This document shows, piece after piece, positions 19,387-45,340 of a stretch of DNA of 64,000 nucleotides (positions within the stretch are counted from its first letter, which is position 1; the number at the start of each line of letters is the position of its first letter). Origin of the DNA: Anaerolineae bacterium (GTDB lineage Bacteria; Chloroflexota; Anaerolineae; DRVO01); contig JABLXR010000031.1 in assembly GCA_013178015.1 (NCBI GenBank), forward strand, positions 21,108-85,107, in the 5' to 3' direction. A model generated the notes under the pieces. The model worked only from the letters and a program-made list of their open reading frames with translations, had not been told where the DNA came from and made no database searches. Both the position numbers and the translations under genes were made by a program.

Positions 19387-20568
19387 GTGAGCGTGACTGC
19401 AGCAAGCGACCAGCCACCGGGTAGCCCGGCTCTCGAGACCAGAGCGCCTAGCGTCCTGGTCAAGCCTGTGTCCGCCCGGTGCAACCTGGCTTGTCGATAC
19501 TGCTTCTATCGGGACCGGGCGAGCGACCCCTATCGAGGCGTACCGGCCGGAACCATGCCCCGCGAGACGTTGGCTGCCCTCGTGGCCCAGCACCTGCATC
19601 TCTCGGGGCCGGTCGCCGTGTTTGGCTGGCAAGGGGGAGAGCCCACTCTGGCGGGCCTCGACTTCTTCCGCCAAGTAGTGAACTTCCAGGAACGATACGG
19701 CGCCTCCGGTCAGGTAGTGTGCAACGCGCTGCAGACGAACGGTGTGGCGCTGGACGCCGAGTGGGCCCGATTCCTGGCTCGCTACCGGTTCCTGGTTGGT
19801 GTGAGCCTTGACGGCCCTCCAGAAGTGCACGATCGCTGGAGGCCCGGCCACGGTGGGGCGCCCACCTACGAGCGGGTCATGGCCGGCATCTCCATCCTGA
19901 GGCGGTATCGGGTGGAGACAAACATACTGGCGGTCGTGCACTCCGCCAATGCTCACCTCGCGGAGACCACTCTGTCGTTCTTCCACGCCCAAGGCCTGCG
20001 GCACCTCCAGTTCGTGCCGGCCGTGGACCGTCTCCCCGACGGATCCCTGGCGGCACACTCCCTCGCTCCGGCCGCTTACGGCGAATTCCTCTGCCGCCTA
20101 TTTGACGCCTGGTATCAGGACGGCCGCCCGGAGCTCTCCATCCGTCTCTTCGACAATCTGGTGGGTATCGCCGCCGGGCACCCCAGCGAGATGTGCGAGC
20201 TAGCAGCACGTTGCGACAGCTACTACGTGGTAGAGCACAACGGTGACGTGTATCCTTGCGACTTCTTCGTGGACCGGCCCCGCTACCTCGGCAACCTGCT
20301 TCGTGAGCCGGTGACCCAGATCCTGAAGAGCTCCCGCCGCCGAGCGTTCGCCAGCACCAGACAGACGCTGCCCCAGGGGTGCGCCGACTGCGTGTGGCTG
20401 ACCGTGTGCCACGGGGGCTGCCTGCGGTATCGCTTCGCTGGTACGGGCTCCCTCACCGGGGCCAACTGGATGTGCGAGGCCACCATCATGCTGCTCGAAC
20501 ACGCCTGGGAGCGGATCTGCACTCTAGCCGCAGCCATTCCTTCACATGCCAGCTCTCCCCCAGCGTGA
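19387..20568 (+). CDS. radical SAM/SPASM-domain protein (anSME-like maturase family)
   Basis: GTG start. The CNLACRYC (Cx3Cx2C) motif begins at residue about 31. The C-terminal SPASM cysteine cluster reads …CADCVWLTVCHGGCLRY…. Confidence 0.85.
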   Translation: MSVTAASDQPPGSPALETRAPSVLVKPVSARCNLACRYCFYRDRASDPYRGVPAGTMPRETLAALVAQHLHLSGPVAVFGWQGGEPTLAGLDFFRQVVNFQERYGASGQVVCNALQTNGVALDAEWARFLARYRFLVGVSLDGPPEVHDRWRPGHGGAPTYERVMAGISILRRYRVETNILAVVHSANAHLAETTLSFFHAQGLRHLQFVPAVDRLPDGSLAAHSLAPAAYGEFLCRLFDAWYQDGRPELSIRLFDNLVGIAAGHPSEMCELAARCDSYYVVEHNGDVYPCDFFVDRPRYLGNLLREPVTQILKSSRRRAFASTRQTLPQGCADCVWLTVCHGGCLRYRFAGTGSLTGANWMCEATIMLLEHAWERICTLAAAIPSHASSPPA

Positions 20569-20598: not shown

Positions 20599-21534
20599 AT
20601 GCGCATCGTCTTCTTCTCTTACCGCGGCACCATCGGCGCCCGCTGCTTACAGTGGCTCCTGCAGCAGCCACAGGCAGAGGTGCTGGCGGTGGTCACCTGG
20701 CCTGATTACGTTCACCCGGAGATCAAGATCGCCGTCAAGGAGGTGCTCTACGATGCGCACCTTCCCCTCTACCAGCCGCGGGATGTGAACTCGAGTGCCT
20801 TCGTCGCCCTCCTGCATTCGCTCCGGCCGGACCTGTTCGTTTCCATGTACTTCGGCAAGCTCTTCAAGGCCCCGCTCCTTTCCGTCCCACCCCAGGGCTG
20901 TGTCAACATCCACAACTCGCTTCTGCCCCGATACCGAGGCCAGGCGCCCAACATCTGGGCGGTAGCCAACGGGGATACCGTATCCGGCCAGACCATGCAC
21001 TACCTGGATGAGGGGATGGACACTGGAGACATCATCGCCCGCAAAGAGATACCTGTGGACCCCGCCGACACCGGTTACACGCTGGGGGCAAAGCTGGAGG
21101 ACCTGGGGGTAGAGCTCTTCAAGGAGGCGTTCCCCGCCGTGCTGAATGGTACCGCTGGCCGCCAGAAGCAGGACGACTCTCAGGCTACGGTCTGCCGTGC
21201 GCCTCGTCCTCACGATGCTCGCATAGACTGGACCCGTCCAGCTCCGGCCATAGCCAACTTCGTCCGGGCCTTCACCAGGCCGTATATGGGAGCCTTCACC
21301 CGGCTGGGCGGGCTCACAGTCCGGGTCTGGTCCTCACGTCCCGCCCCCGAGCTTCCGTGGCAGGCGGATGCCGCACCGGGCGACGTGGCAGGAGTGGAGG
21401 CCGAGGGACCAATAGTGCGCTGCGGCCAGGGCCACCTCATCCTGACCGACTTTGAGGTAGAGGGCATCCAGGACCGGAGCTCGGCCCTGTCACTGCTTTC
21501 GGCAGGCAGGCGTAGCTGCGCCTCGTTCGCCTGA
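20599..21534 (+). CDS. formyltransferase-family protein (Fmt/ArnA-N-like)
   Basis: The N-terminus MRIVFFSY…, an NIHNSLLPRYRGQAPNIWAV (SLLP/HxSLLPxxRG) motif and an Fmt-like C-terminal domain are present over 311 aa. Confidence 0.8.
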   Translation: MRIVFFSYRGTIGARCLQWLLQQPQAEVLAVVTWPDYVHPEIKIAVKEVLYDAHLPLYQPRDVNSSAFVALLHSLRPDLFVSMYFGKLFKAPLLSVPPQGCVNIHNSLLPRYRGQAPNIWAVANGDTVSGQTMHYLDEGMDTGDIIARKEIPVDPADTGYTLGAKLEDLGVELFKEAFPAVLNGTAGRQKQDDSQATVCRAPRPHDARIDWTRPAPAIANFVRAFTRPYMGAFTRLGGLTVRVWSSRPAPELPWQADAAPGDVAGVEAEGPIVRCGQGHLILTDFEVEGIQDRSSALSLLSAGRRSCASFA

Positions 21535-21682
21535 GCCCATCGGGCGAAGGATGGCACGGCGATCCGCCTCTTCTGCCCGCCCAACCTCTCGATGGCTTTC
21601 CCTGTGGCTGTGACCCCTCGCCCGTCCCTACAGCCTGGCCAGCGTTGCCCAGAAGCGTCCGCCCCCTCATAACTGCGTCAAG

Positions 21683-21741
21683 TTGCCGGATCCGGCAAAA
21701 AAGTCTGCCGGATCCGGCAATCAGATTTGCCGGATCCGACA
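21683..21741. promoter_or_regulatory. three tandem palindromic operator-like sites TTGCCG-GATC-CGGCAA (ComA-box-like 6-N4-6 geometry)
   Basis: A perfect 16-bp palindrome at 21683-21698 with near-copies at 21706-21720 and 21727-21741, spaced about 22-23 bp apart and lying in an intergenic region. The half-site TGCCGGA recurs at 22454-22488. Confidence 0.6.
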
Positions 21742-21920
21742 TGACGAACCCTGCCTCAAGCCCGGTATCATACACCTGCGGTGGAAGCAAGGCCGTTGCC
21801 GTGGACCGCGGCGACACTGCCGCCAGGGAGGGGAGCCGACCACCTCCAGACTCGCACGGCGGCGGAGGGCCGGGCCTGCGACAGCTTCCGCCATATCTGG
21901 CCAGAGGTGGAGAGGTACCG

Positions 21921-22244
21921 GTGACCGCTCAGAATGGTACAAGGGCACTGGTGTATATTCGGGTGTCCTCGGGCTTCGGCGTGGACGGCCAGCGGGAACG
22001 CTGCCTCAGAGAGGCGATGCGTGCCGGCTGGAGGGTGGAAGCTGGTGACGTGTACATAGACGTAGGGACGGAGGGCGGCCGCGCCTGGCGAGCCCTGCGA
22101 CGGCGGCTTCTGGACGACCAGTCCGTAGCGGCCGTGATCGCCCAGGATCAGACTCGGGTGAGCCAGCAGCGCGACGTCTGGCTCGCCATCGCCGCCGAGC
22201 TGCGCGACCTGGGCGTCGAGCTGCGCACTCCTAGTGCCAGTTGA
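21921..22244 (+). pseudogene. truncated serine recombinase (resolvase catalytic domain only, no DNA-binding domain)
   Basis: A GTG start follows GGAGAGG. The sequence ALVYIRVSSGFGVDGQRERCLREAMRAGW… matches the resolvase N-terminal catalytic-Ser motif. It spans only about 107 aa and lacks the C-terminal HTH. Confidence 0.5.
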
Positions 22245-22423
22245 CCCCTCATCCGGGTACGACGGCCACGGCCAGGGCGTCTCGGGCGGCTGAGCACCCA
22301 TCCCGCACGGGCGCCAGCGGGGCCGCCTGGTCCCTGGCTGGACCCTGTCGGACTCGGACAGGGGCAGAAAGACAGGCCAGGCCGAGGGGAGGCCAACTCG
22401 GACATTGCCGGGTATTGCTTGAT

Positions 22424-22453
22424 TTGACGTGTAATGGAAATCAGCTCTAGTAT
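22424..22453 (+). promoter_or_regulatory. candidate sigma70-type promoter for the precursor operon (TTGACG-N18-TAGTAT)
   Basis: An AT-rich island stands out in a GC-rich background about 170 nt upstream of the precursor ATG. It is followed by the split palindrome CTGCCGGA-N19-TCCGGCAG. Confidence 0.4.
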
Positions 22454-22620
22454 CTGCCGGAAGTGCGAAAGTGGTACCTATCCGGCAGCCAGGCTTGGTG
22501 GGTCCGGCACGGCCGCGGAAGCGGCGGTGGCGCGCTCTGATCGCCGGGGCAGGTAGTGGGGCGGCATACCTTGCCTCCGGAAGGTTACGGCGCCGCTCTG
22601 GAAGCGCTCAGGAGGTCCGT

Positions 22621-22911
22621 ATGAATCATCTGGCCCGCGCTGTACACGACGCACTCTCAGGCAAGAGGTCCATTGATCAGCTCACTGAGACCGAGGCGTT
22701 GGCCCTCGAGGAGTCGCTCAGAAGCCTCGGGCGAGCCCGGGGCTCTGTGGGTCCCCAGGAGGCCTGGGCCGTGTCGCCAATGGCCCAAGCCGGACCGGGC
22801 CCCCAAGAAGCCTGGGCCGTGTCCCCTATGGCTGAGGCCGGTCCGGGCCCTCAGGAGGCCTGGGCCGTATCGCCAGCAAGCAAGACGGACCCCAGCGCCG
22901 GGGAACTCTAA
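22621..22911 (+). CDS. ComX-like precursor peptide with three tandem 16-aa Trp-containing repeats
   Basis: AGGAGG lies 5 nt before the ATG at 22621. The 43-aa leader is followed by GPQEAWAVSPMAQAGP / GPQEAWAVSPMAEAGP / GPQEAWAVSPASKTDPSAGEL, encoded by 48-bp repeats at 22750-22908 that carry synonymous differences. The ORF from 22471 is an over-extension. Confidence 0.6.
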   Translation: MNHLARAVHDALSGKRSIDQLTETEALALEESLRSLGRARGSVGPQEAWAVSPMAQAGPGPQEAWAVSPMAEAGPGPQEAWAVSPASKTDPSAGEL

Positions 22912-23101
22912 GCCGGTTCGGCCGTCGAGGAGCCAATCACACGCCTTGCCTGAGCTGGCAGGTTCTGTTCCCACGACTGCCGCGCCGGACCCGGGGTCTG
23001 CAGGCCACCTAGAAGGCTTCCGTGCCAGAGCCCGTGCCCTGATCGGAGGTTGCCTCAGCGAGGCGGGCGTCGAGCAAGCCTGTGCCCGGCAGATCAGCGA
23101 C

Positions 23102-23968
23102 ATGGTGGCCAGTTGGTTGGATCAGAGCCGGCATCACCAGGGCATACTAGACCTGCCAGCTCTCGTCTGCTGGGCCGCAGGGGGCGACCCCGTCCAGGCG
23201 GCGCCGGCCGGCGCCGCCTGGTGGCTCATGCGGTTTGCTGCCAAGCTCTTCGACGATGTAGAGGACGGCGACCTGTCCCACGGGCTTCCGGAGGCGGTGA
23301 ATCTGGCTTCTGCTGCCCTGATGGCTGCCCAGGCGCTCATCTTGGGCTCGGCCTGGCCAGCCCCGGCTGGCCCTACCGCTGTCGGCCTCGAGTTCGCCCG
23401 CGCCTGCCTCGTAGCTGCCGGGGGGCAGCATCTGGACCTGGCGGTCGCGAGCGGCCAGGCACACATTGACCCGGACCTCTGGCTCTCCATGGCCCAGGGC
23501 AAGTCGGGCTCGCTCCTGGGCTGGGCCGCGTGGGCCGGAGCCGTGGCCGCAGGGGTAGACCCTGCCCTCGCCTGCCACTTCCGTGACTACGGCAGATGGC
23601 TCGGCGTCCTGGTGCAGATTGCCGACGATTACGCCGATACGTGGAGCCCGACCTCTCCGGCCGACCATGGCTTCCGCGGCTCCTCGTTGGCGCTCGCTTA
23701 CGGACATCTGGTCTCCGATGGCGACACGAGGGCGGAGCTCGAGCTGTGGCTGAAGAGAGCCAGGGATGGCGATTGCTGCGCCGCTGAGCTCCTGCGCCGG
23801 AAGCTTGCTTCCCTCGGTGCGCCGGCCTTCCTCGTGGTGGCGGCCAGGGATTGCCGGGAGCGAGCGACGCGTGAGCTCAGGAAGACAGGCTGCCAGGCAA
23901 GTCGCGGTGCTCCCCTGCTGGGCCTCCTGGGACACCCGCTGAGATCGGTCGAGCAGGCGGGGGTGTGA
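23102..23968 (+). CDS. polyprenyl synthase-like isoprenoid transferase (ComQ-like)
   Basis: Two DDxxD motifs are present (AAKLFDDVEDGD and LVQIADDYADTW, the latter in an FQxxDDxxD-like context). The stop lies 4 nt before the kinase start. The start is uncertain: the first in-frame ATG is at 23102 and an upstream TTG at about 22947 is an alternative. The 22673 ORF start overlaps the precursor and is rejected. Confidence 0.65.
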   Translation: MVASWLDQSRHHQGILDLPALVCWAAGGDPVQAAPAGAAWWLMRFAAKLFDDVEDGDLSHGLPEAVNLASAALMAAQALILGSAWPAPAGPTAVGLEFARACLVAAGGQHLDLAVASGQAHIDPDLWLSMAQGKSGSLLGWAAWAGAVAAGVDPALACHFRDYGRWLGVLVQIADDYADTWSPTSPADHGFRGSSLALAYGHLVSDGDTRAELELWLKRARDGDCCAAELLRRKLASLGAPAFLVVAARDCRERATRELRKTGCQASRGAPLLGLLGHPLRSVEQAGV

Positions 23969-23972
23969 CGTC

Positions 23973-26231
23973 ATGGACTTTGCGCCGACCACACAGCTCT
24001 CCCGGAGTTCTCGTGCATCGGCCCTGAGCGCCCTGCACATCGTCCTGATAGTTGCCTGCGCCCTCCTCGTCCTCTGGGCCGCCTCGGCGGCAGTTGGTCG
24101 GTCCTGCAGGCACGGCGGAGGCACCGCCCCCTTCCACGGAGGGGCCTGTCCTTCTTTGGCCGAGGACCTGGCGCCGTTAGCGGTCGCCCTCGGACTGGCG
24201 ATGATAGCCTGGCGACTGCGACACCTGCCCCAACCCTCTCCCTTCCTCACCTTCATAGGCTTCTCGATTGCAGTGGCCTCCGGCAAGCTCGGGCTGCTCG
24301 GCAGCGATGTGGGCATGAGGCTGTACTTCATCTCGCTGGCGGGGGCAGCACCAGCTTTCTTCCTCCTTCATCACCGCCTGCTCGGGGAGCCGTTGGGGCG
24401 CCGTTCCCGGAGGGTCCTCGCGGCGCTCCTCGGCCTGGCCCTGGGGCTCGCCCTGCCGCCGGCTCTGGCCTCCTTCGCCGTCCTGGCAGAGCAGCCCTGG
24501 TACTCCCTGTGGCGGGGAATGGTCCGCCTGTCGGCGGCCTTGTCTGTGTTGGTGTCCGGAGCCTGGCTGGTGTTCTCCTGGAGGCGGGACTGGCCCGAGG
24601 TGAAGCTGCGACCCCTGCGTCTGGTAACCTATGGCAACATCGTCGCCTTCGCCCCTCTGGTGTTGCTGTCCATGCTGCCCGACACCTTTCACAGCCCAGT
24701 CTACGTGCCCTACGAGATCACCCTCTTTGGCTCCCTCCTGAGCCCGCTCTGCTACTCCCACGCTTTCACTATGACCGGTGCCCCGGGGCACGGGGTCCGC
24801 CTGCGGTTCCTTTCTGTCTACCTGATGCTGGCCGTCCTGCTCACCTTCGTCCTCCTGGTGGCAATGGCCGCTTTCACTGTCGCTGGCCTGCCAGTAGGTC
24901 AGGCCTGGGCGATCGCTCTGCTGGTCGCTTCGGCTGCCATCGTTGCCGTCGGGCCGAGCACAAGGCGGTGGTTCACCGGCCTGTCCGAGTGGACCTGGTT
25001 CGGTCGCGGCCCTGGGTACGACCAGATCCTGGATCGCCTGTCCGAGACTCTTTCCACCACCTTGGACCAGGAGCGTCTGCGCCGCATGCTGGTTTCCGAG
25101 CTCGTTCGGGAGTTAGGCCTCTCCGGCGCCGCTCTGTTCCTCAAAGACAGCACCGGTCACCTGCGTCTGGTCGAGGCCGTGGGGTCGATGCACCTGGAGA
25201 ATGCTGACCTGGCTGTCCCCGTGGATGGCCCCCTGGTGGAGCATCTCTCCACCCACCCACGCCCCGTCACCCAAGACGGACTGCGGCAGGCACTTGCCTC
25301 ACACAGCCTTGGCATGGCGGAGCGGTTCCTGCTGGCCATGGAACCGCCTCTCTGGGTGCCGCTCGTCTCGGGGGGCGAGGCGTACGGCCTTCTGCTGGTA
25401 GGTCCCAAGACCGATGCCGACTTCTTCACCCCTGATGACGTGCGCCTTCTGACACTGCTGGGCTACCGCGCCGGGGTGGCAGCACACAATGTGCTGCTTA
25501 TGAAAGAGCTGCGCCGCAGCCACGAGCAGCTTTCCCGGGCTCACCAGCGCCTCCTCGATGCCGTCGAGCAAGAGAGGCGACGCCTTGCCCACGAGCTGCA
25601 CGACGGAGCAGTGCAGCAACTCCTCGCCGTCACCTACCACGTCGCCCACTACCGGCACACCCTTGCCGATGACGGCGGCGAGCAGAGCTCGGCCGTGCAG
25701 GCGGCTTCCGAGGCGCTAGACTCGCTCCGGCAGGAGCTGCTAGCAGTGGTTACCCAGCTGCGGTCCAGCATCAGCGGCTTGCGCCCGGCCGGGCTGGACG
25801 ACTTGGGCCTGGCGGCGGCGCTGGCCGGCTACGTGTCCCGACTGGAACAGGAGCATCTGGGCCGCATGCCCGAGATTGAGCTGGACCTGGATGAGGGTTC
25901 GGCTCGGCTGCCCTCTCGCGTGTCCCTCTGTCTGTTTCGAGTGGCCCAGGAGGCCCTGCGCAACGCCATCAGGCATTCGAGAGCCGATTTTGTGCGTGTC
26001 AGGCTGAGGGTGGAGGCCGAGCGCGTTCACCTCCTGGTGAGTGACGACGGACAAGGTTTCGTCGTACCCGAGCGCCTGAGCCAGCTGACCGGCGAGGGTC
26101 ACTTCGGCTTGCTCAGCATCTCGGAGCGCGTCTCCCTGTTGCCGGGCAAGTTGACCATTCGCTCCCGTCCTGACTACGGAACGGAGATCTCTGTTGATGT
26201 TGACCTCAGCGAGGTAGACCCCAGTGATTGA
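23973..26231 (+). CDS. multi-TM sensor histidine kinase, HisKA_3/HATPase (ComP-like architecture, with GAF domain)
   Basis: About 8-10 N-terminal TM helices and a GAF-like region. The H-box LAHELHDGAVQQLLAV is of HisKA_3 type (NarX/DegS/ComP type), and a C-terminal ATPase domain follows. The protein is 752 aa. Confidence 0.85.
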   Translation: MDFAPTTQLSRSSRASALSALHIVLIVACALLVLWAASAAVGRSCRHGGGTAPFHGGACPSLAEDLAPLAVALGLAMIAWRLRHLPQPSPFLTFIGFSIAVASGKLGLLGSDVGMRLYFISLAGAAPAFFLLHHRLLGEPLGRRSRRVLAALLGLALGLALPPALASFAVLAEQPWYSLWRGMVRLSAALSVLVSGAWLVFSWRRDWPEVKLRPLRLVTYGNIVAFAPLVLLSMLPDTFHSPVYVPYEITLFGSLLSPLCYSHAFTMTGAPGHGVRLRFLSVYLMLAVLLTFVLLVAMAAFTVAGLPVGQAWAIALLVASAAIVAVGPSTRRWFTGLSEWTWFGRGPGYDQILDRLSETLSTTLDQERLRRMLVSELVRELGLSGAALFLKDSTGHLRLVEAVGSMHLENADLAVPVDGPLVEHLSTHPRPVTQDGLRQALASHSLGMAERFLLAMEPPLWVPLVSGGEAYGLLLVGPKTDADFFTPDDVRLLTLLGYRAGVAAHNVLLMKELRRSHEQLSRAHQRLLDAVEQERRRLAHELHDGAVQQLLAVTYHVAHYRHTLADDGGEQSSAVQAASEALDSLRQELLAVVTQLRSSISGLRPAGLDDLGLAAALAGYVSRLEQEHLGRMPEIELDLDEGSARLPSRVSLCLFRVAQEALRNAIRHSRADFVRVRLRVEAERVHLLVSDDGQGFVVPERLSQLTGEGHFGLLSISERVSLLPGKLTIRSRPDYGTEISVDVDLSEVDPSD

Positions 26232-26913
26232 TCGGCGAATCAGAGTGCTCTTGGCTGATGACCACCCCTTCATGCGCGCTGGCATCCGAGCCACGCCGGC
26301 AAGCGAAGGGGACGTCAGCGTGGTAGGCGAGGCCAGCAACGCCGATGAAGCGCTGCAGCTGGCGATGCAGCTCAAGCCCGATGTGCTCCTCCTGGACCTG
26401 CACATGCCCGGGTCTCCGGCAGGGTCCGTGGTTGAGGAACTGAAGCGCCGTTGCCCGAACGTCCGGGTGTTGGTGCTCACCGCCTACGACGACGACGTCT
26501 ACGTACAGGGCATGCTGGCGCTAGGTGTAGCGGGGTACGTCCTCAAGGACGAAGTGCCTGAAGCACTCGTCCGAGCCTTGCGGGCCGTCTACCGGGGCGA
26601 CACGTGGTTCAGCACCCGCGCCCTGAACGCGTTGGCCCGCAGCCGGCAGGCCTACATGCCCCAGGACGGGCAGGGCCTCTTCACTGAGAGAGAGCTCGAG
26701 ATATTGCGCTTGATGATGGTAGGCAAGACGGACCGAGAGATTGCGGACGAGCTAGTCTGCGCGGAGAGGACCGTCCGGTATCACTTGCGCGGCATCTTCG
26801 GCAAGCTGGGCGTAGACAGCAGGGTGGAAGCGGCGGTGCGCGCCGCCCAGCTGAACCTCGGCGGCCGGGAGGGCACTGCTTCGGACTCGAGCGCCGGCCA
26901 ATCGCCCTCGTAG
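26224..26913 (+). CDS. NarL/LuxR-family response regulator (ComA-like)
   Basis: The GTG start overlaps the kinase stop (GTGA). The receiver domain (VLLADDHP…LLLDLHMPG) is followed by the LuxR HTH (TERELEILRLMMVGKTDREIADELVCAERTVRYHL). Confidence 0.9.
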   Translation: MIDRRIRVLLADDHPFMRAGIRATPASEGDVSVVGEASNADEALQLAMQLKPDVLLLDLHMPGSPAGSVVEELKRRCPNVRVLVLTAYDDDVYVQGMLALGVAGYVLKDEVPEALVRALRAVYRGDTWFSTRALNALARSRQAYMPQDGQGLFTERELEILRLMMVGKTDREIADELVCAERTVRYHLRGIFGKLGVDSRVEAAVRAAQLNLGGREGTASDSSAGQSPS

Positions 26914-30949: not shown

Positions 30950-31531
30950 CTAGCCGGTGAAGAACGGGAACTCGGTGTCGTCCCAGTAGGTGTTGTTGTC
31001 CTCCAGGTACTCCAGACTTCGCTGCAGCCACTGGTGATGACGGTTCTCCTCCTCCATCAGGAGGCGATAGGCAGCTCGAGCGTTGGGGTCGTCGGCCCGT
31101 TCGTAGGCATCCCGATAGAGGGCGAATCCGCGTTCTTCTGCCTTGAGGGCCAGTTCCAGCGCTTCGCGGTCGCCCGACCCGGCGTGAAGACCAGGGATCA
31201 CCCGGCTCGGATCCGGGAAGAGCCGCTCCTCGGGTATGGCAGCCCCAGGCACGTCGCCAGGGGAAACCTTGAACTGCTCAATCGGGGGAACAGAGGCGGC
31301 CTTGGCCTTCTCCACACTGATCCACCCACCGCCATCGAGCAGACTCTGATACTCGCCCGCTAGGACACGGTAGTGCTCCTCTTCGTCATGGGCCAAGCCC
31401 AGAAACATGCGCCGACCCATCTCGTCCCGCACGTGATGGGCAATCGCGAGGTAGTAGCGTCTACCTTCCTGCTCGTTGATGATCGCGTACGCCAGCGCTG
31501 CCAGCGCCGCCGCGTTCGATGCTGAGGACAT
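30950..31531 (-). CDS. ferritin-like/rubrerythrin-like domain protein (no obvious encapsulin targeting tag)
   Basis: Two E…EEH-type helix pairs (…DEMGRRMFLGLAHDEEEHY… and …EEENRHHQWL…) are separated by a Pro-rich linker. The gene is immediately downstream of the encapsulin gene. Confidence 0.55.
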   Translation of the reverse strand: MSSASNAAALAALAYAIINEQEGRRYYLAIAHHVRDEMGRRMFLGLAHDEEEHYRVLAGEYQSLLDGGGWISVEKAKAASVPPIEQFKVSPGDVPGAAIPEERLFPDPSRVIPGLHAGSGDREALELALKAEERGFALYRDAYERADDPNARAAYRLLMEEENRHHQWLQRSLEYLEDNNTYWDDTEFPFFTG

Positions 31532-31583
31532 CGGGCAAACTCCTCCGACTGACAGAATGTACTGACGCGGAAGGCACGATCGC

Positions 31584-32417
31584 TCACTCCAGAACGCAGA
31601 TTCCCTCGGGGCGCCGTATCCGCAGCGCCAGGGTCTCCAGCACCCGGAAGGGATGGTTCAGTTCCTCCGGGCCCTTGTAGGCGACCTGAATATCGCCGCC
31701 GATGGCCAGGTCCAAGACGTCAGGGCCGGATGAGACCAGAGCGCCTGTGCCGGCATCCAGAATGGGGCTCTGGAAGACCCCCGCCTCGGCCACCGACTTG
31801 ATAAGCTCCAGCTCCAGCCTACCTCCGTGCCCGAGAATGCGCAGGAGCTTGGTGTACAAGTCGGGCGCGAGCACCAGAGCGTACGGGCCCATGGCGGCGT
31901 TGGCCACCAATAGCGAGCGGGCCTGTGCCACCGCCGCCAGCCCACTTCCCGGCTCCTCCCAGCCAGCCTCGATCGCCACCGTCACGTGTCCGGGAACCCT
32001 CATGATTCCGGGGTTGTCGTCCGTGCCGTAGAACACCAGTCGGTCCTCCGCGCGGGCGAGCATCGCCCCCGCGGCTGCTCCGGCAGAGACGTCCAGGGGA
32101 GCGTGCAGGTCCCGCGCCGTGGCGATGTCCCGCCACGTGAGCCGAAAGTCCTTGTACAGCATCTCCAGCGCCAGCAGGCGCCTCTCCGTGGGCACGACCT
32201 CGTCGGTCTCCTCTTCGCCATAGGTGCCCATGGTGCCCGGGCTCACGCCCTTGACCTTGTCCACCCACACGGCCTGCACTCCCAGGCCCAGAGGCCCGTA
32301 CAGGCTGATGAACCGCCTCCCTACCAGGTTCGCCCGGGCGGCCTGCATCACGGCAGAATCAATCTGCTCCCACTCCTGGTCGCTCAAGGGAGCGTCCTGT
32401 CGCAACAACAACTCCAT
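31584..32417 (-). CDS. family 1 encapsulin nanocompartment shell protein (linocin M18-like, HK97 fold)
   Basis: The N-terminus MELLLRQDAPLSDQEWEQIDSAVMQAARANLVGRRFISLYGPLGLG aligns with the T. maritima encapsulin start ([20 protein letters not shown]…GRKF…GP.G). The protein is 277 aa with GGAGG upstream. Confidence 0.85.
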   Translation of the reverse strand: MELLLRQDAPLSDQEWEQIDSAVMQAARANLVGRRFISLYGPLGLGVQAVWVDKVKGVSPGTMGTYGEEETDEVVPTERRLLALEMLYKDFRLTWRDIATARDLHAPLDVSAGAAAGAMLARAEDRLVFYGTDDNPGIMRVPGHVTVAIEAGWEEPGSGLAAVAQARSLLVANAAMGPYALVLAPDLYTKLLRILGHGGRLELELIKSVAEAGVFQSPILDAGTGALVSSGPDVLDLAIGGDIQVAYKGPEELNHPFRVLETLALRIRRPEGICVLE

Positions 32418-32487
32418 TGTCTCACCTCCAACAGCGTTATGACTGGAAATCCTCGGCCCGTGGCAGACAGACTGGGCCGGCCTTCCC

Positions 32488-33573
32488 TTACCTAGACTTG
32501 AGGCTACCTACCGTGAATCCGGGCGCAGTGCGCCCAGAGGCGGGCCTCCCCTCCGCCGAGCTCAAGTCGGGCGCGGCGTCCGCCCTCTCCGCCGGTGTCC
32601 CGGTGCGGGCGTCGGCAACCGAGGCCGAATCCTTGCCGGATCCACGCTCCTTCGCCGGCTGAGTACGGCCCAGGCCCGGCCGCTGCGAGGCCGGATCATT
32701 CTCCCGCACTCGCCCCAGCATCAGGTCGAACATGTGAATGTGGAACTCCTCGTTCTCCCGGGCTCGGTCCAGGGTCTCCACCAGCTCGGCTTGATCCTCG
32801 TCGTTGCGCAAGCGGTCAGCGTATTCGGCGTAGGTAGCGGCCACGCTCTTCTCGGCCTCCAAATCCGCTCCCAGCATGTCCCCGGTGGCTTCCCCCTTGT
32901 GCACCAAGCCACGCGCAAACAGGGGGAAGTGACCCGACTCAGCAGCCAGTTCGCCAAACCAGCCCAGGTGCTGCATCTCATTGATAGAGATGGTCTCCAG
33001 CTCTCGGCTCGCTTCGTAGTCCGGGGTGACGAAGGAGTGGAACAGGTACTGGAGGATGACCGTGTATTCGTGCTGGGTAGCGTAGTCTAGCACTCTGGCT
33101 ACCTCAGCCGCCAAGCCCTCGCCCTGGTAGATCCCGGCGGGCTTCCCTTCGAGCTCGCCTCCCGGACCGAACTTCTCGCGGAAAGAAGTGAAGACCTCCA
33201 GGTGAGCACGCTCGTCCGTCAGGATGCGATCAATGAGGGCGACGATCTTAGGGTCGTCAATGGCCTTCTTGTGAGCCTCGTACTGAGCGATGGCGTCCTC
33301 TTCGGCCCGGATGTCCCTCGCCATCCATTCGAGTGGGGCCTTGCCGCCTAGCTCCATCTCGGTGCGGTCCAGAATGGGCTCCCCGCCCAGCTGGGTGATG
33401 GCCTGCGCCAGCCACTTGAAGTGGCGCATCTCATCCCGCGCTGTCTGTTCTATCTCGGCCGCCTCTTCCCCCTCCCCCAGCAGGTAGGCGTGCTGCAGGT
33501 AGAGAATGATGGCTCCGTGTTCATCACGCATGTCGTCGTACAGCATCTTGATGATCTCGTTCTTCGCTGCCAT
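32488..33573 (-). CDS. tandem ferritin-like (rubrerythrin/Bfr-like) encapsulin cargo protein with C-terminal targeting peptide
   Basis: The ATG at 33573 follows AGGAGGG. Two diiron-type ferritin-like repeats (…AYLLGEGEEAAEIEQTARDEMRHFKWL… and …YLFHSFVTPDYEASRELETISINEMQHLGWF…) are followed by a disordered tail ending …APGFTVGSLKSR, which matches the family-1 cargo-loading consensus (TVGSLK). Confidence 0.7.
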   Translation of the reverse strand: MAAKNEIIKMLYDDMRDEHGAIILYLQHAYLLGEGEEAAEIEQTARDEMRHFKWLAQAITQLGGEPILDRTEMELGGKAPLEWMARDIRAEEDAIAQYEAHKKAIDDPKIVALIDRILTDERAHLEVFTSFREKFGPGGELEGKPAGIYQGEGLAAEVARVLDYATQHEYTVILQYLFHSFVTPDYEASRELETISINEMQHLGWFGELAAESGHFPLFARGLVHKGEATGDMLGADLEAEKSVAATYAEYADRLRNDEDQAELVETLDRARENEEFHIHMFDLMLGRVRENDPASQRPGLGRTQPAKERGSGKDSASVADARTGTPAERADAAPDLSSAEGRPASGRTAPGFTVGSLKSR

Positions 33574-33584
33574 TCGCCACCCTC

Positions 33585-34457
33585 CTAACACTGATCGGAT
33601 CTGATCCGCAACCACGTATGCCAGAGCAGTACTGCGTCCTGATCGTTTGTCGGACTCTCGCAGATCACGCGCCCCGACACGCGCAGGCGCGCGAGAACGC
33701 CCAGGAGCCCCCTGTAGTTGAGGTCCGACTCCGGCAGAGGCACATGCCTGATTTCCCCTCGGGCGCCATACTCAATGCCGCTGACGTGTATGTGGACGTC
33801 CTGCAGGGCCTCGCTCCCCAGCGCCTGCCCCATGCGCTGCAGCACCTGCTCAAACTCGTCCTCCGTGTTCATCAGTCCTTGCCTGGCGTGCAAGTGCGCG
33901 AAGTCCAGGCAAGGTCTGACGCCGGGCACATCTTGCGCCAGCCGGAGCAGTTCGTCAAGGTCTCCGAACTGAGCCTGCTTGCCAGTCGTCTCCGGGCGCA
34001 GGCAAATGTGGACTCCCTCCTCTCGCAAGATGTGCGACATCTCAGCAACGTGCGACCGCACCACTTGGTACACGCGCTCAGGTGCGTCGTCGTGCCTCCA
34101 TCCGGCGTGGAACACGACCGTGTCGGCACCACAGAGATACCCGACCCGAGCGGCCTGCAACACCCGGTAGCGACTGGCCTTGACCTTGTCCGCCGACGGG
34201 GAGTTCAGGTTGATGTAGTAGGACGCATGGGCGCTGAGGGCCACGTCCAGCCGATGTGCCTGGGCCTGTACATCCGGTGCCTGATCCGGCCGCACGTTCA
34301 CCCGGTGCACGAAAGCCAGCTCCATGGCCTGCAGGCCAAGCCGCCGCACCTCAGCGATGCCATCCAGGTGGCTGGCTCCACTTAGGCTTCGAGGGACACC
34401 GGCGGTGCCGAAGCGCAGAGGCGCCCCGCATCCGGAGCGCTCCGCTGCCCCTGTCAT
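33585..34457 (-). CDS. nfo: endonuclease IV-like (AP endonuclease family 2, TIM barrel)
   Basis: HASYYINLNSPSADKVKASR resembles the Nfo HAPYLINLG region, with metal-binding H/D/E positions. The ATG at 34457 follows the upstream stop at 34471. The ORF extending to 34685 is an over-extension. Confidence 0.7.
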   Translation of the reverse strand: MTGAAERSGCGAPLRFGTAGVPRSLSGASHLDGIAEVRRLGLQAMELAFVHRVNVRPDQAPDVQAQAHRLDVALSAHASYYINLNSPSADKVKASRYRVLQAARVGYLCGADTVVFHAGWRHDDAPERVYQVVRSHVAEMSHILREEGVHICLRPETTGKQAQFGDLDELLRLAQDVPGVRPCLDFAHLHARQGLMNTEDEFEQVLQRMGQALGSEALQDVHIHVSGIEYGARGEIRHVPLPESDLNYRGLLGVLARLRVSGRVICESPTNDQDAVLLWHTWLRIRSDQC

Positions 34458-44665: not shown

Positions 44666-45128
44666 CAGCCCCGGGGCAAGGAAGGACTACGGGTAGTCCA
44701 GCAGTTGTAGCTCGATCAGGTTCTGGCTGAGCCGGGACGCAACCCGATCGCTGGCGACCACAGCCGGTCGGCCTCTCTTGCCAGGCAGAGGACATAGGGC
44801 AGTACCCAGATTGGGCCAAGTGTGCTCAGACGGGAAGCAACCTCGCGGGCTGGAGCGGTCATAGGTGGTGAAGATGATGGGCAAGGGACGACCACTGCAG
44901 GGCGCACTAACGATGAGGGCGGCAGAGCGTTCAAGGTAAGTCGTGTCCAACAATGGCGGCAACAATAGCTCCCCTTGGGTAGGGCTTTCTCGAAGTCGAG
45001 CCTGCGTTGGGCGAGCTGCCATCTGGCGCGGGCCACGAACCACCACCGGCCAGCCAGCACGTATGGCACAGAGGCGATGCAGCGTTCGACAGCGCCCAGC
45101 CTGGCTCCGATAGCCATCTCCGGTAGCC

Positions 45129-45340
45129 TGCCCCAGCGCTTCGACAACGCCCTAGCCGTAGGGGCGAACCTTGTGTTCGCCCGCAGTATTCTCCAGTAGT
45201 CATCTCTGGTGGCCTGCCGCAGCACTGTGACAACGCCCTAGCCGTAGGGGCGAACCTTGTGTTCGCCCGCAGTATTCTCCAGTAGTCATCTCCAGTGGCC
45301 TGCCACAGGACTTTGACGACGCCCTACCCCCTTGGGGCAT
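45129..45340. repeat. about 90-bp tandem direct repeat (about 2.5 copies), each with an internal hairpin GGGGCGAAC-cttgt-GTTCGCCCC
   Basis: The sequence cgacaacgccctagccgtaggggcgaaccttgtgttcgcccgcagtattctccagtagtcatctc occurs twice nearly identically (about 45150-45215 and 45233-45298), with a diverged third partial copy. Confidence 0.5.

Follow-up and report, generated by a model that had tools for sequence, protein, structure and literature searches.

The closest described parallel to the locus examined here is the ComA module of Bacillus subtilis, in which the inverted repeat TTGCGG-N4-CCGCAA is accompanied by degenerate promoter-proximal elements, RE3 and RE4, situated beside a weak -35 region (PMC4797271). 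At ComA promoters the inverted repeat acts as a class I element and the degenerate elements as class II elements, with contacts to alpha and sigma (PMC4797271), and the ComQXPA system of B. subtilis works without signal-dependent positive feedback (PMC7794433). The Chloroflexota are abundant and mostly uncultured, and cell-to-cell signalling is almost unexplored in this phylum. A ComQ-type prenyltransferase from the Chloroflexota was first characterised in 2026, with the description of ComQ-type Trp prenylation of a peptide by the StheQ/StheX pair of Sphaerobacter thermophilus (bioRxiv 10.64898/2026.08.29.745113). When the main text of that paper was searched for ComA, for a histidine kinase and for a response regulator, none was found, and what a comparative survey recorded for the Chloroflexi was limited to a ComP/ComA-like pair (PMC8895600).

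We analysed a stretch of 64,000 nucleotides from a metagenome-assembled genome (MAG) of an Anaerolineae bacterium (hereafter the window; G+C content of 65 %), containing a gene cassette that resembles ComX/ComQ/ComP/ComA, with the gene order X-Q-P-A. A ComX-like precursor peptide (22621-22911; 96 aa, with three 16-aa repeats that each contain a Trp) is followed by a polyprenyl-synthase-like, ComQ-like enzyme (HPY83_12960, 22946-23968), a ComP-like sensor kinase (23973-26231; 752 aa, with a multi-TM N-terminus and GAF, HisKA_3 and HATPase domains) and a NarL-type response regulator (26224-26913; receiver plus GerE HTH, with the recognition helix AERTVRYHLRGIFGKL). No other GerE protein is encoded in these 64 kb. 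Upstream of the cassette are genes for a radical-SAM/SPASM protein (19387-20568), a formyltransferase (20599-21534) and a resolvase N-domain fragment (21921-22244), all the listed genes being on the + strand. The array of palindromes described here lies 180 bp upstream of this last gene.

Several features of the window lie aside from the array. The precursor gene contains a 48-bp tandem repeat (22749-22875), with 16-aa repeats GPQEAWAVSPMAQAGP; the precursor of a relative, L002 (loci are designated by L numbers), has four such units and that of L006 has two QPWM units, which suggests, from their sequences, that these are multi-core ComX-like precursors, one precursor yielding several prenylated peptides. 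The L163 precursor is like StheX in that it ends in ...QQPWF, with the Trp second from the C-terminus. Far below the cutoff, the NCBIfam family that fits the ComQ-like protein best is the family-2 encapsulin cargo polyprenyl transferase. The window also has a gene for an encapsulin shell (Linocin_M18; ~30950-33615, L001 16978-19601), situated between rubrerythrin- and ferritin-like genes, and this pairing is probably coincidental. There is also an 86-bp tandem repeat at 45111-45326 (2.5 copies, 90 % matches, TRF score of 355), where the GC3-based scan listed no ORF.

The array (21683-21742, + strand) consists of three tandem palindromes in the order TTGCCGGATCCGGCAA-aaaagt-CTGCCGGATCCGGCAA-tcagat-TTGCCGGATCCGACAT. 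The distal site 1 (21683-21698) is a perfect 16-bp palindrome, TTGCCG-GATC-CGGCAA; the middle site 2 (21705-21720), CTGCCG-GATC-CGGCAA, has one mismatch; and the promoter-proximal site 3 (21727-21742), TTGCCG-GATC-CGACAT, has two, its left half-site being intact and its right half degenerate and abutting a weak -35. Each site starts 22 bp after the one before it, and Tandem Repeats Finder recovered the array with a period of 22, 2.7 copies and a score of 79. No further copies with three or fewer mismatches occur in the 64-kb window; the chance expectation for such copies anywhere in the window is 0.43, and all three were found in phase within 60 bp. The half-site TGCCGGA appears 31 times in the window versus 14.8 expected, 8 of the 31 being inside 21684-22509. 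Among the loci described below, the central 4 bp vary (GATC, GTTC, GACC, CATC, AAAG) and the hexamers TTGCCG/CGGCAA are kept, and this confirms the 6-N4-6 geometry. Both this geometry and the three tandem palindromes had been recognised in a first-pass annotation of the DNA, whose coordinates are correct for site 1 and differ by one base at most at the ends of copies 2 and 3. The GATC centres attracted a reading related to Dam methylation or restriction, which was rejected: the window shows no avoidance of GATC (343 versus ~205 expected), and the tetramer is not a conserved feature, because the L006 and L165 arrays lack it at the centre. The GATC or BamHI sites of the array are thus incidental.

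The same two- or three-site array was found at 14 promoters from about 11 lineages, each beside a NarL/LuxR-type regulator. In the relative represented by L002, L004 and L005 (GTDB copy L092) the gene order is the same as in the window, with amino-acid identities of 80 % (formyltransferase), 74 % (regulator), 70 % (kinase), ~60 % (ComQ) and 59 % (precursor). At the DNA level, the array matches that of L002 with 91.4 % identity over 70 bp, the resolvase-fragment gene is 74.2 % identical and the remaining intergenic DNA cannot be aligned; by this comparison, the array is a phylogenetic footprint. It occurs with ComXQPA-like cassettes in L002/L092, L006, L007, L163, L168 and L169, with a kinase-regulator pair among pilus genes in L161 and L165, and with a NarL-type regulator in L154, where the regulator gene is followed by the array. 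Two copies, TTGCCGGATCCGGCAA/T, are situated directly upstream of the precursor in L007, with a ComQ 44-46 % identical and a fucosidase neighbour, and the same position is occupied by TTGCCGGTTCCGGCAA and TTGCCGGAAGCAACAT in L006, with a Ser/Thr kinase neighbour. Across these unrelated genomic contexts, the array travels with the regulator rather than with the neighbouring genes. Site 1 is kept in L002 and L092, and equivalent distal sites exist at the array locations of L168, L169, L161 and L165. A single palindrome with a single half-site is the minimal unit that is conserved; in the window, with its three palindromes, this unit looks to have been duplicated.

Searches with individual components varied in their yield. 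Only five homologues were returned with the ComQ-like protein, a count that understates the family, since look-ups based on the regulator gave four more cassettes, and the N-terminal sensor region of the kinase returned no homologues. An nhmmer profile made from the arrays identified exactly one array promoter in the window and had no match in L003, L008, L160 or L167. The motif is absent upstream of the precursor in L008/L009; these are not counter-examples, because their short contigs stop before the post-regulator region that holds the array in their close relative L168. It is also absent from L160, which is too distant to inform (29 % ComQ-like protein, low GC, a regulator without GerE).

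A metagenome scan with the palindrome plus a half-site gave 30 loci, of which L154 and the L018 lineage were informative beyond the window and the L006 lineage. In the L018 lineage, a Dehalococcoidia MAG, the array is placed between the gene for a LuxR-type regulator and a lanthipeptide precursor with its synthetase. This region (L018 5400-6091, - strand, and likewise L136, L156 and L157) has a palindrome plus half-site at the same distance from the -10, ahead of a lanthipeptide cluster with the precursor MSRILALQRLELPQDLGFEVGVIGGSGASISCPSCCSCDSTGCC, a 902-aa kinase/LanC-like synthetase and an ABC transporter; the operator-like array of L018 comes directly after the LuxR-type regulator gene and is partly inside its last codons. 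A second TGCCGG pair in L018 was dismissed as due to chance because it is inside the ABC-transporter gene. A scan of genome contigs with the degenerate pattern TTGCCGGNNCCGGCAAN{5,9}TGCCGG produced at least 120 loci. Among the matches listed, nearly all were coding DNA (e.g. ...IAGAGKAFCAGHDLKEM... in enoyl-CoA-hydratase-like frames) or TTTTGCCGG..CCGGCAAAA terminator hairpins from Proteobacteria and Bacteroidota, the informative ones being limited to L018 and to L092, which belongs to the L002 relative. A motif of that degeneracy lacks specificity, so the scan is unable to define a regulon; chance alone makes degenerate versions frequent in coding DNA rich in GC and in terminators of other phyla.

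Intergenic arrays of a TTGCCGGnnCCGGCAA-like palindrome were also seen in Proteobacterial, largely sphingomonad, loci (L144, L146, L148 and L150; also L141 and L158), with copies in the L144 group ca. 20 bp apart by eye, and in the genome loci L020, L033, L063, L083 and L122, with an 11-bp offset between + and - strand matches. By eye, the palindromes of L146 and L158 are flanked by FlgB/FlgC-like rod proteins and a MotA-like protein. These sphingomonad-type palindromes are a separate system, sharing the palindrome by convergence or chance.

The position of the array points to a promoter, designated P1, immediately downstream. A predicted -10, TATCAT (21766-21771, +), begins 23 nt after site 3, with a predicted start near 21778, and a putative weak -35 region, ATGACG / GACGAA (21741-21748, +), is overlapped by site 3. 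This -10 places the centres of the three sites near -43.5, -65.5 and -87.5, with site 3 in a class II and site 2 in a class I position. When the 14 arrays were aligned on their last 16-mer, a TAnnnT hexamer (TATCAT, TATGCT, TATGAT, TATAAT, TAGAAT, TAGTAT and others) started 22-23 nt past the proximal 16-mer in every one of them, the background being 0.0032 per position. The proximal site is conserved in its left half alone, [TC]TGCCG (14/14 arrays), its right half decaying into, or abutting, a weak -35-like TTACGC / TGACGA / TGACGC. The fixed distance to the -10, the poor -35 and a proximal centre near -42 from the predicted start correspond to an activator-dependent sigma-70 promoter of class I/II, and the -43/-65/-87 phasing together with the poor -35 has the appearance of a classic activator layout.

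The association between the array and one type of regulator was evaluated with six loci (L161, L163, L165, L167, L168 and L169) fetched solely via regulator homology, recognition-helix type and length of available sequence. All five loci whose regulator has the ERTVR helix start carry arrays with palindromes that are perfect or have one mismatch. In L161 and L165, with a kinase-regulator pair by pilus genes, a three-site array comes after the regulator stop codon and ahead of a 123-aa ORF; L163, a new cassette, has two arrays, one before a 197-aa ORF and one before the precursor; the L168 cassette has a three-site array after the regulator; and the L169 cassette has three separate three-site arrays, each ahead of a gene. 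The remaining locus, L167, has a cassette with the helix KERTVEFHVGNVLRKL (KERTVEFHV) instead of ERTVRY..., and TTGCCG-N4-CGGCAA does not occur within its 15.2 kb. Helix type and site covary, with L167 as the one negative case. Every array locus encodes a GerE-HTH regulator in the cassette or beside the array, and the ERT[VI]R helix start is common to all motif-linked regulators whose gene is on the fetched DNA, the contig of L007 ending before its regulator. The same helix position reads KRSIE in ComA (sequence checked against PDB 2KRF) and ESTVK in NarL. The ERTVR start is present in 70 of the best 120 regulator homologues.

Further details were observed at some of these loci. In L167 (3045-7200), the DNA upstream of the precursor lacks the TTGCCG palindrome and has repeats of CATTGACA in its place, a candidate operator for this lineage. 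The three arrays of L169 (8705-13110; TTGCCGGATCCGGCAG / TTGCCTAAAGCGGCAA / half-site) are nearly identical to one another and lie in the 4.5 kb downstream of the cassette. They precede genes for proteins of 216, 303 and 219 aa without a Pfam match, interspersed with small GerE-only proteins, in what looks like a compact local regulon. The 5′ UTR before the 123-aa ORF in L161 (8800-8900) and L165 (8790-8900) holds five to six copies of an 8-mer, ACTGATAG or AGCGATAG, at ~12-20 bp intervals.

The comparison with ComA, whose box the first-pass annotation had likened to these palindromes, brings out both likenesses and differences. As in the ComA box, inverted hexamers are separated by a 4-nt spacer, the half-sites matching in 5/6 positions, and the degenerate element on the promoter side, adjoining a poor -35 in a class I plus class II layout, appears comparable to those of ComA. 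The regulator of the window, which presumably binds the array, is like ComA a NarL-family protein whose gene is grouped with those for a prenyl-transferase-like enzyme, a multi-TM kinase and a precursor that contains Trp, and the two recognition helices have in common R, S/T, I/V, Y and IF-KL positions. In contrast, the hexamer is TTGCCG in 14/14 arrays instead of TTGCGG, with a change from G to C at position 5; RE3/RE4 of ComA form a direct repeat, TTGCGG-N5-TTGCGG, whereas the proximal element of the array looks like a decayed inverted repeat ~22 bp downstream; and the array has up to three full-size sites. The best PDB matches of the regulator are NarL, VraR and DevR (E from 1e-33 to 1e-31), the ComA C-terminal domain reaching E 1.3e-7; the regulator is a generic NarL-family protein, no nearer to ComA than to those three, and not a ComA orthologue. 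The array thus seems to be a functional analogue of the ComA box and not a ComA box by membership. The lux/tra boxes of LuxR/TraR and the NarL/DevR arrays are likewise palindromic sites for dimers of GerE-type HTH proteins, and in them the proximal site is near -42, overlapping the -35, with upstream sites helically phased. These sites are unlike those of the array in sequence and half-site length, and the proposed binder of the array is a response regulator controlled by phosphorylation, not an acyl-homoserine-lactone receptor. No report of the motif as an operator turned up in the literature that was searched.

The first-pass annotation placed the array upstream of the precursor operon, which is correct except that it is not immediately upstream: the 107-codon resolvase-fragment gene lies in between, and ~900 bp separate the array from the precursor. 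The product of this first gene after P1 has a serine-recombinase catalytic domain with an RVSS motif and no HTH. Its gene has a ribosome-binding site, GGAGAGG, seven bases ahead of its GTG start, and the protein, which is without E-helix or HTH, is 77-78 % identical in amino acids to that of the relative (L002 6802-7116); because of this identity and its own ribosome-binding site, the fragment looks to be under selection and not decaying. No + strand terminator was detected in 21400-22700, and with none detectable before the precursor P1 probably reads into the precursor/ComQ-like/kinase/regulator operon; such read-through over the resolvase-fragment gene is plausible. The operon has its own sigma-70-like promoter, P2 (22424-22453, +; TTGACG-18-TAGTAT), which is conserved in L002 as TTGACC...TAGCAT and is recognisable in L163 ~110 nt past the array promoter of that locus. 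The simplest history is the insertion of the resolvase fragment between P1 and P2, with the additional gain of a 116-aa ORF there in L002.

Autoinduction is predicted where the precursor has an array upstream of it, as in L006, L007, L163 and probably the window, whereas the ComQXPA system of B. subtilis lacks signal-dependent positive feedback; L168 and L169 are like Bacillus, with arrays only before other targets. Isolated half-sites are present around the start of P2: TGCCGGA at 22455-22461 (+) and TCCGGCA at 22481-22487 and 22503-22509. The first two correspond to a split inverted repeat that had been annotated at 22454-22488 and is indeed there, starting directly after the -10 (TAGTAT) of P2. 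The 5′-leader hairpin proposed for it gained no support, since the segment folds no better than shuffled sequences (z = -1.3) and its first arm is mostly upstream of the predicted P2 start. The three half-sites lie across the P2 start or beyond it. L002 retains the first and the third of them, and L163 is without them. Their occurrence is non-random, and they may be auxiliary regulator sites over the P2 start, giving feedback damping.

We consider that the array is probably the activator-binding region of P1, bound by the NarL-type regulator encoded at 26224-26913. This agrees with the operator role assigned in the first-pass annotation, and the phylogenetic footprint, the linkage to the regulator, the outcome of the helix prediction and the fixed -10 distance all argue for it. 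We deem it unlikely that the array is a genuine promoter operator with another binder, such as a NarL/LuxR paralogue or a different HTH dimer, or that it is a repressor array. A paralogue could be the binder because the ERTVR start is common to many Chloroflexota paralogues, and no fewer than three kinds of system have the palindrome (ComXQPA-like cassettes, a pilus-linked two-component pair, and a LuxR-type regulator with a lanthipeptide cluster); yet the array always adjoins a regulator of the ERT[VI]R helix type, there is no second GerE protein in the window, and the L167 cassette, with its changed helix, has lost the motif. The isolated half-sites that overlap the P2 start are in a repressor-type position, which would fit negative control, whereas sites phased at -43/-65/-87 beside a poor -35 form the classic layout of an activator.

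That the array is only a structural repeat, either a REP/BIME-like element or a hairpin terminating or stabilising the upstream transcript, with no operator role, is improbable in our view. Its RNA fold is strong (-39 kcal/mol, z = -6.6), similar GC-rich palindromes are terminators in other phyla, and several arrays come directly after the regulator stop codon, where hairpin terminators or REP-like elements also sit. A match to the REP-derived Rfam family naRNA4 reaches 27 bits, below the threshold of 59.5, and no Rfam family exceeded its threshold with the array. The intrinsic terminator test gave hits on the - strand only, where the annotation of the interval has no gene; there is no T-run on the transcribed strand, the + strand hairpins being followed by A-runs. 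Furthermore, the proximal copy cannot pair, because it keeps only one half-site (14/14 arrays), the bases are conserved without compensatory changes across lineages with 44-62 % protein identity, the distance to the -10 is fixed and there is a single array in 64 kb. The adjacent serine recombinase also raised the idea of a res-like recombination site at the border of a mobile element, given three palindromic subsites 180 bp upstream of a Resolvase-domain gene, like a Tn3-family res beside tnpR. This we regard as extremely improbable: the subsites of res differ in size and spacing, whereas those of the array are equal in size with a 22-bp period; the adjacent gene encodes ~100 residues of catalytic domain without a DNA-binding HTH; no transposase or inverted ends were seen; and no resolvase gene is near the arrays of L006, L007, L018, L154, L161, L163, L165, L168 and L169. 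The res-site reading is thus largely refuted and can be set aside for practical purposes.

For the activator-binding region that we favour, dimers of the phosphorylated NarL-type regulator (26224-26913) would bind the full palindromes near -87.5 and -65.5 and, likewise, the third, half-degenerate site near -43.5, over the poor -35. P1 would then transcribe the resolvase-fragment gene, and its transcript would read on into the precursor/ComQ-like/kinase/regulator operon, the net effect being that P2 supplies a basal level of expression, which P1 amplifies in response to the signal. A wider reading, which we put forward tentatively, is that TTGCCG-N4-CGGCAA arrays at -43/-65(/-87) could be the operator code of a large, Chloroflexota-specific clade of ERT[VI]R NarL/LuxR regulators. 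Such a clade would link prenylated-peptide quorum sensing to autoinduction, RiPP (lanthipeptide) clusters, pilus-linked genes and small proteins, and also to a domesticated, catalytic-domain-only fragment of a serine recombinase.

Palindrome arrays that bind dimers at activator-dependent promoters are a textbook kind of element, and what is new is therefore a matter of scope and not of principle. A cis-element for the cognate regulator makes these cassettes testable circuits, predicting a signal-activated promoter and a pattern with which to search for targets; L169 already has three target promoters beside its cassette. Autoinduction, absent from the Bacillus paradigm, is predicted in some lineages, and the presence of the same array before a lanthipeptide cluster suggests a regulatory code shared by peptide natural-product clusters. 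The main value of the array is as a handle for finding regulons of quorum sensing in uncultured Chloroflexota: if the clade-wide code is true, the motif alone would let the quorum-sensing regulons of uncultured Anaerolineae and Dehalococcoidia be read from metagenomes.
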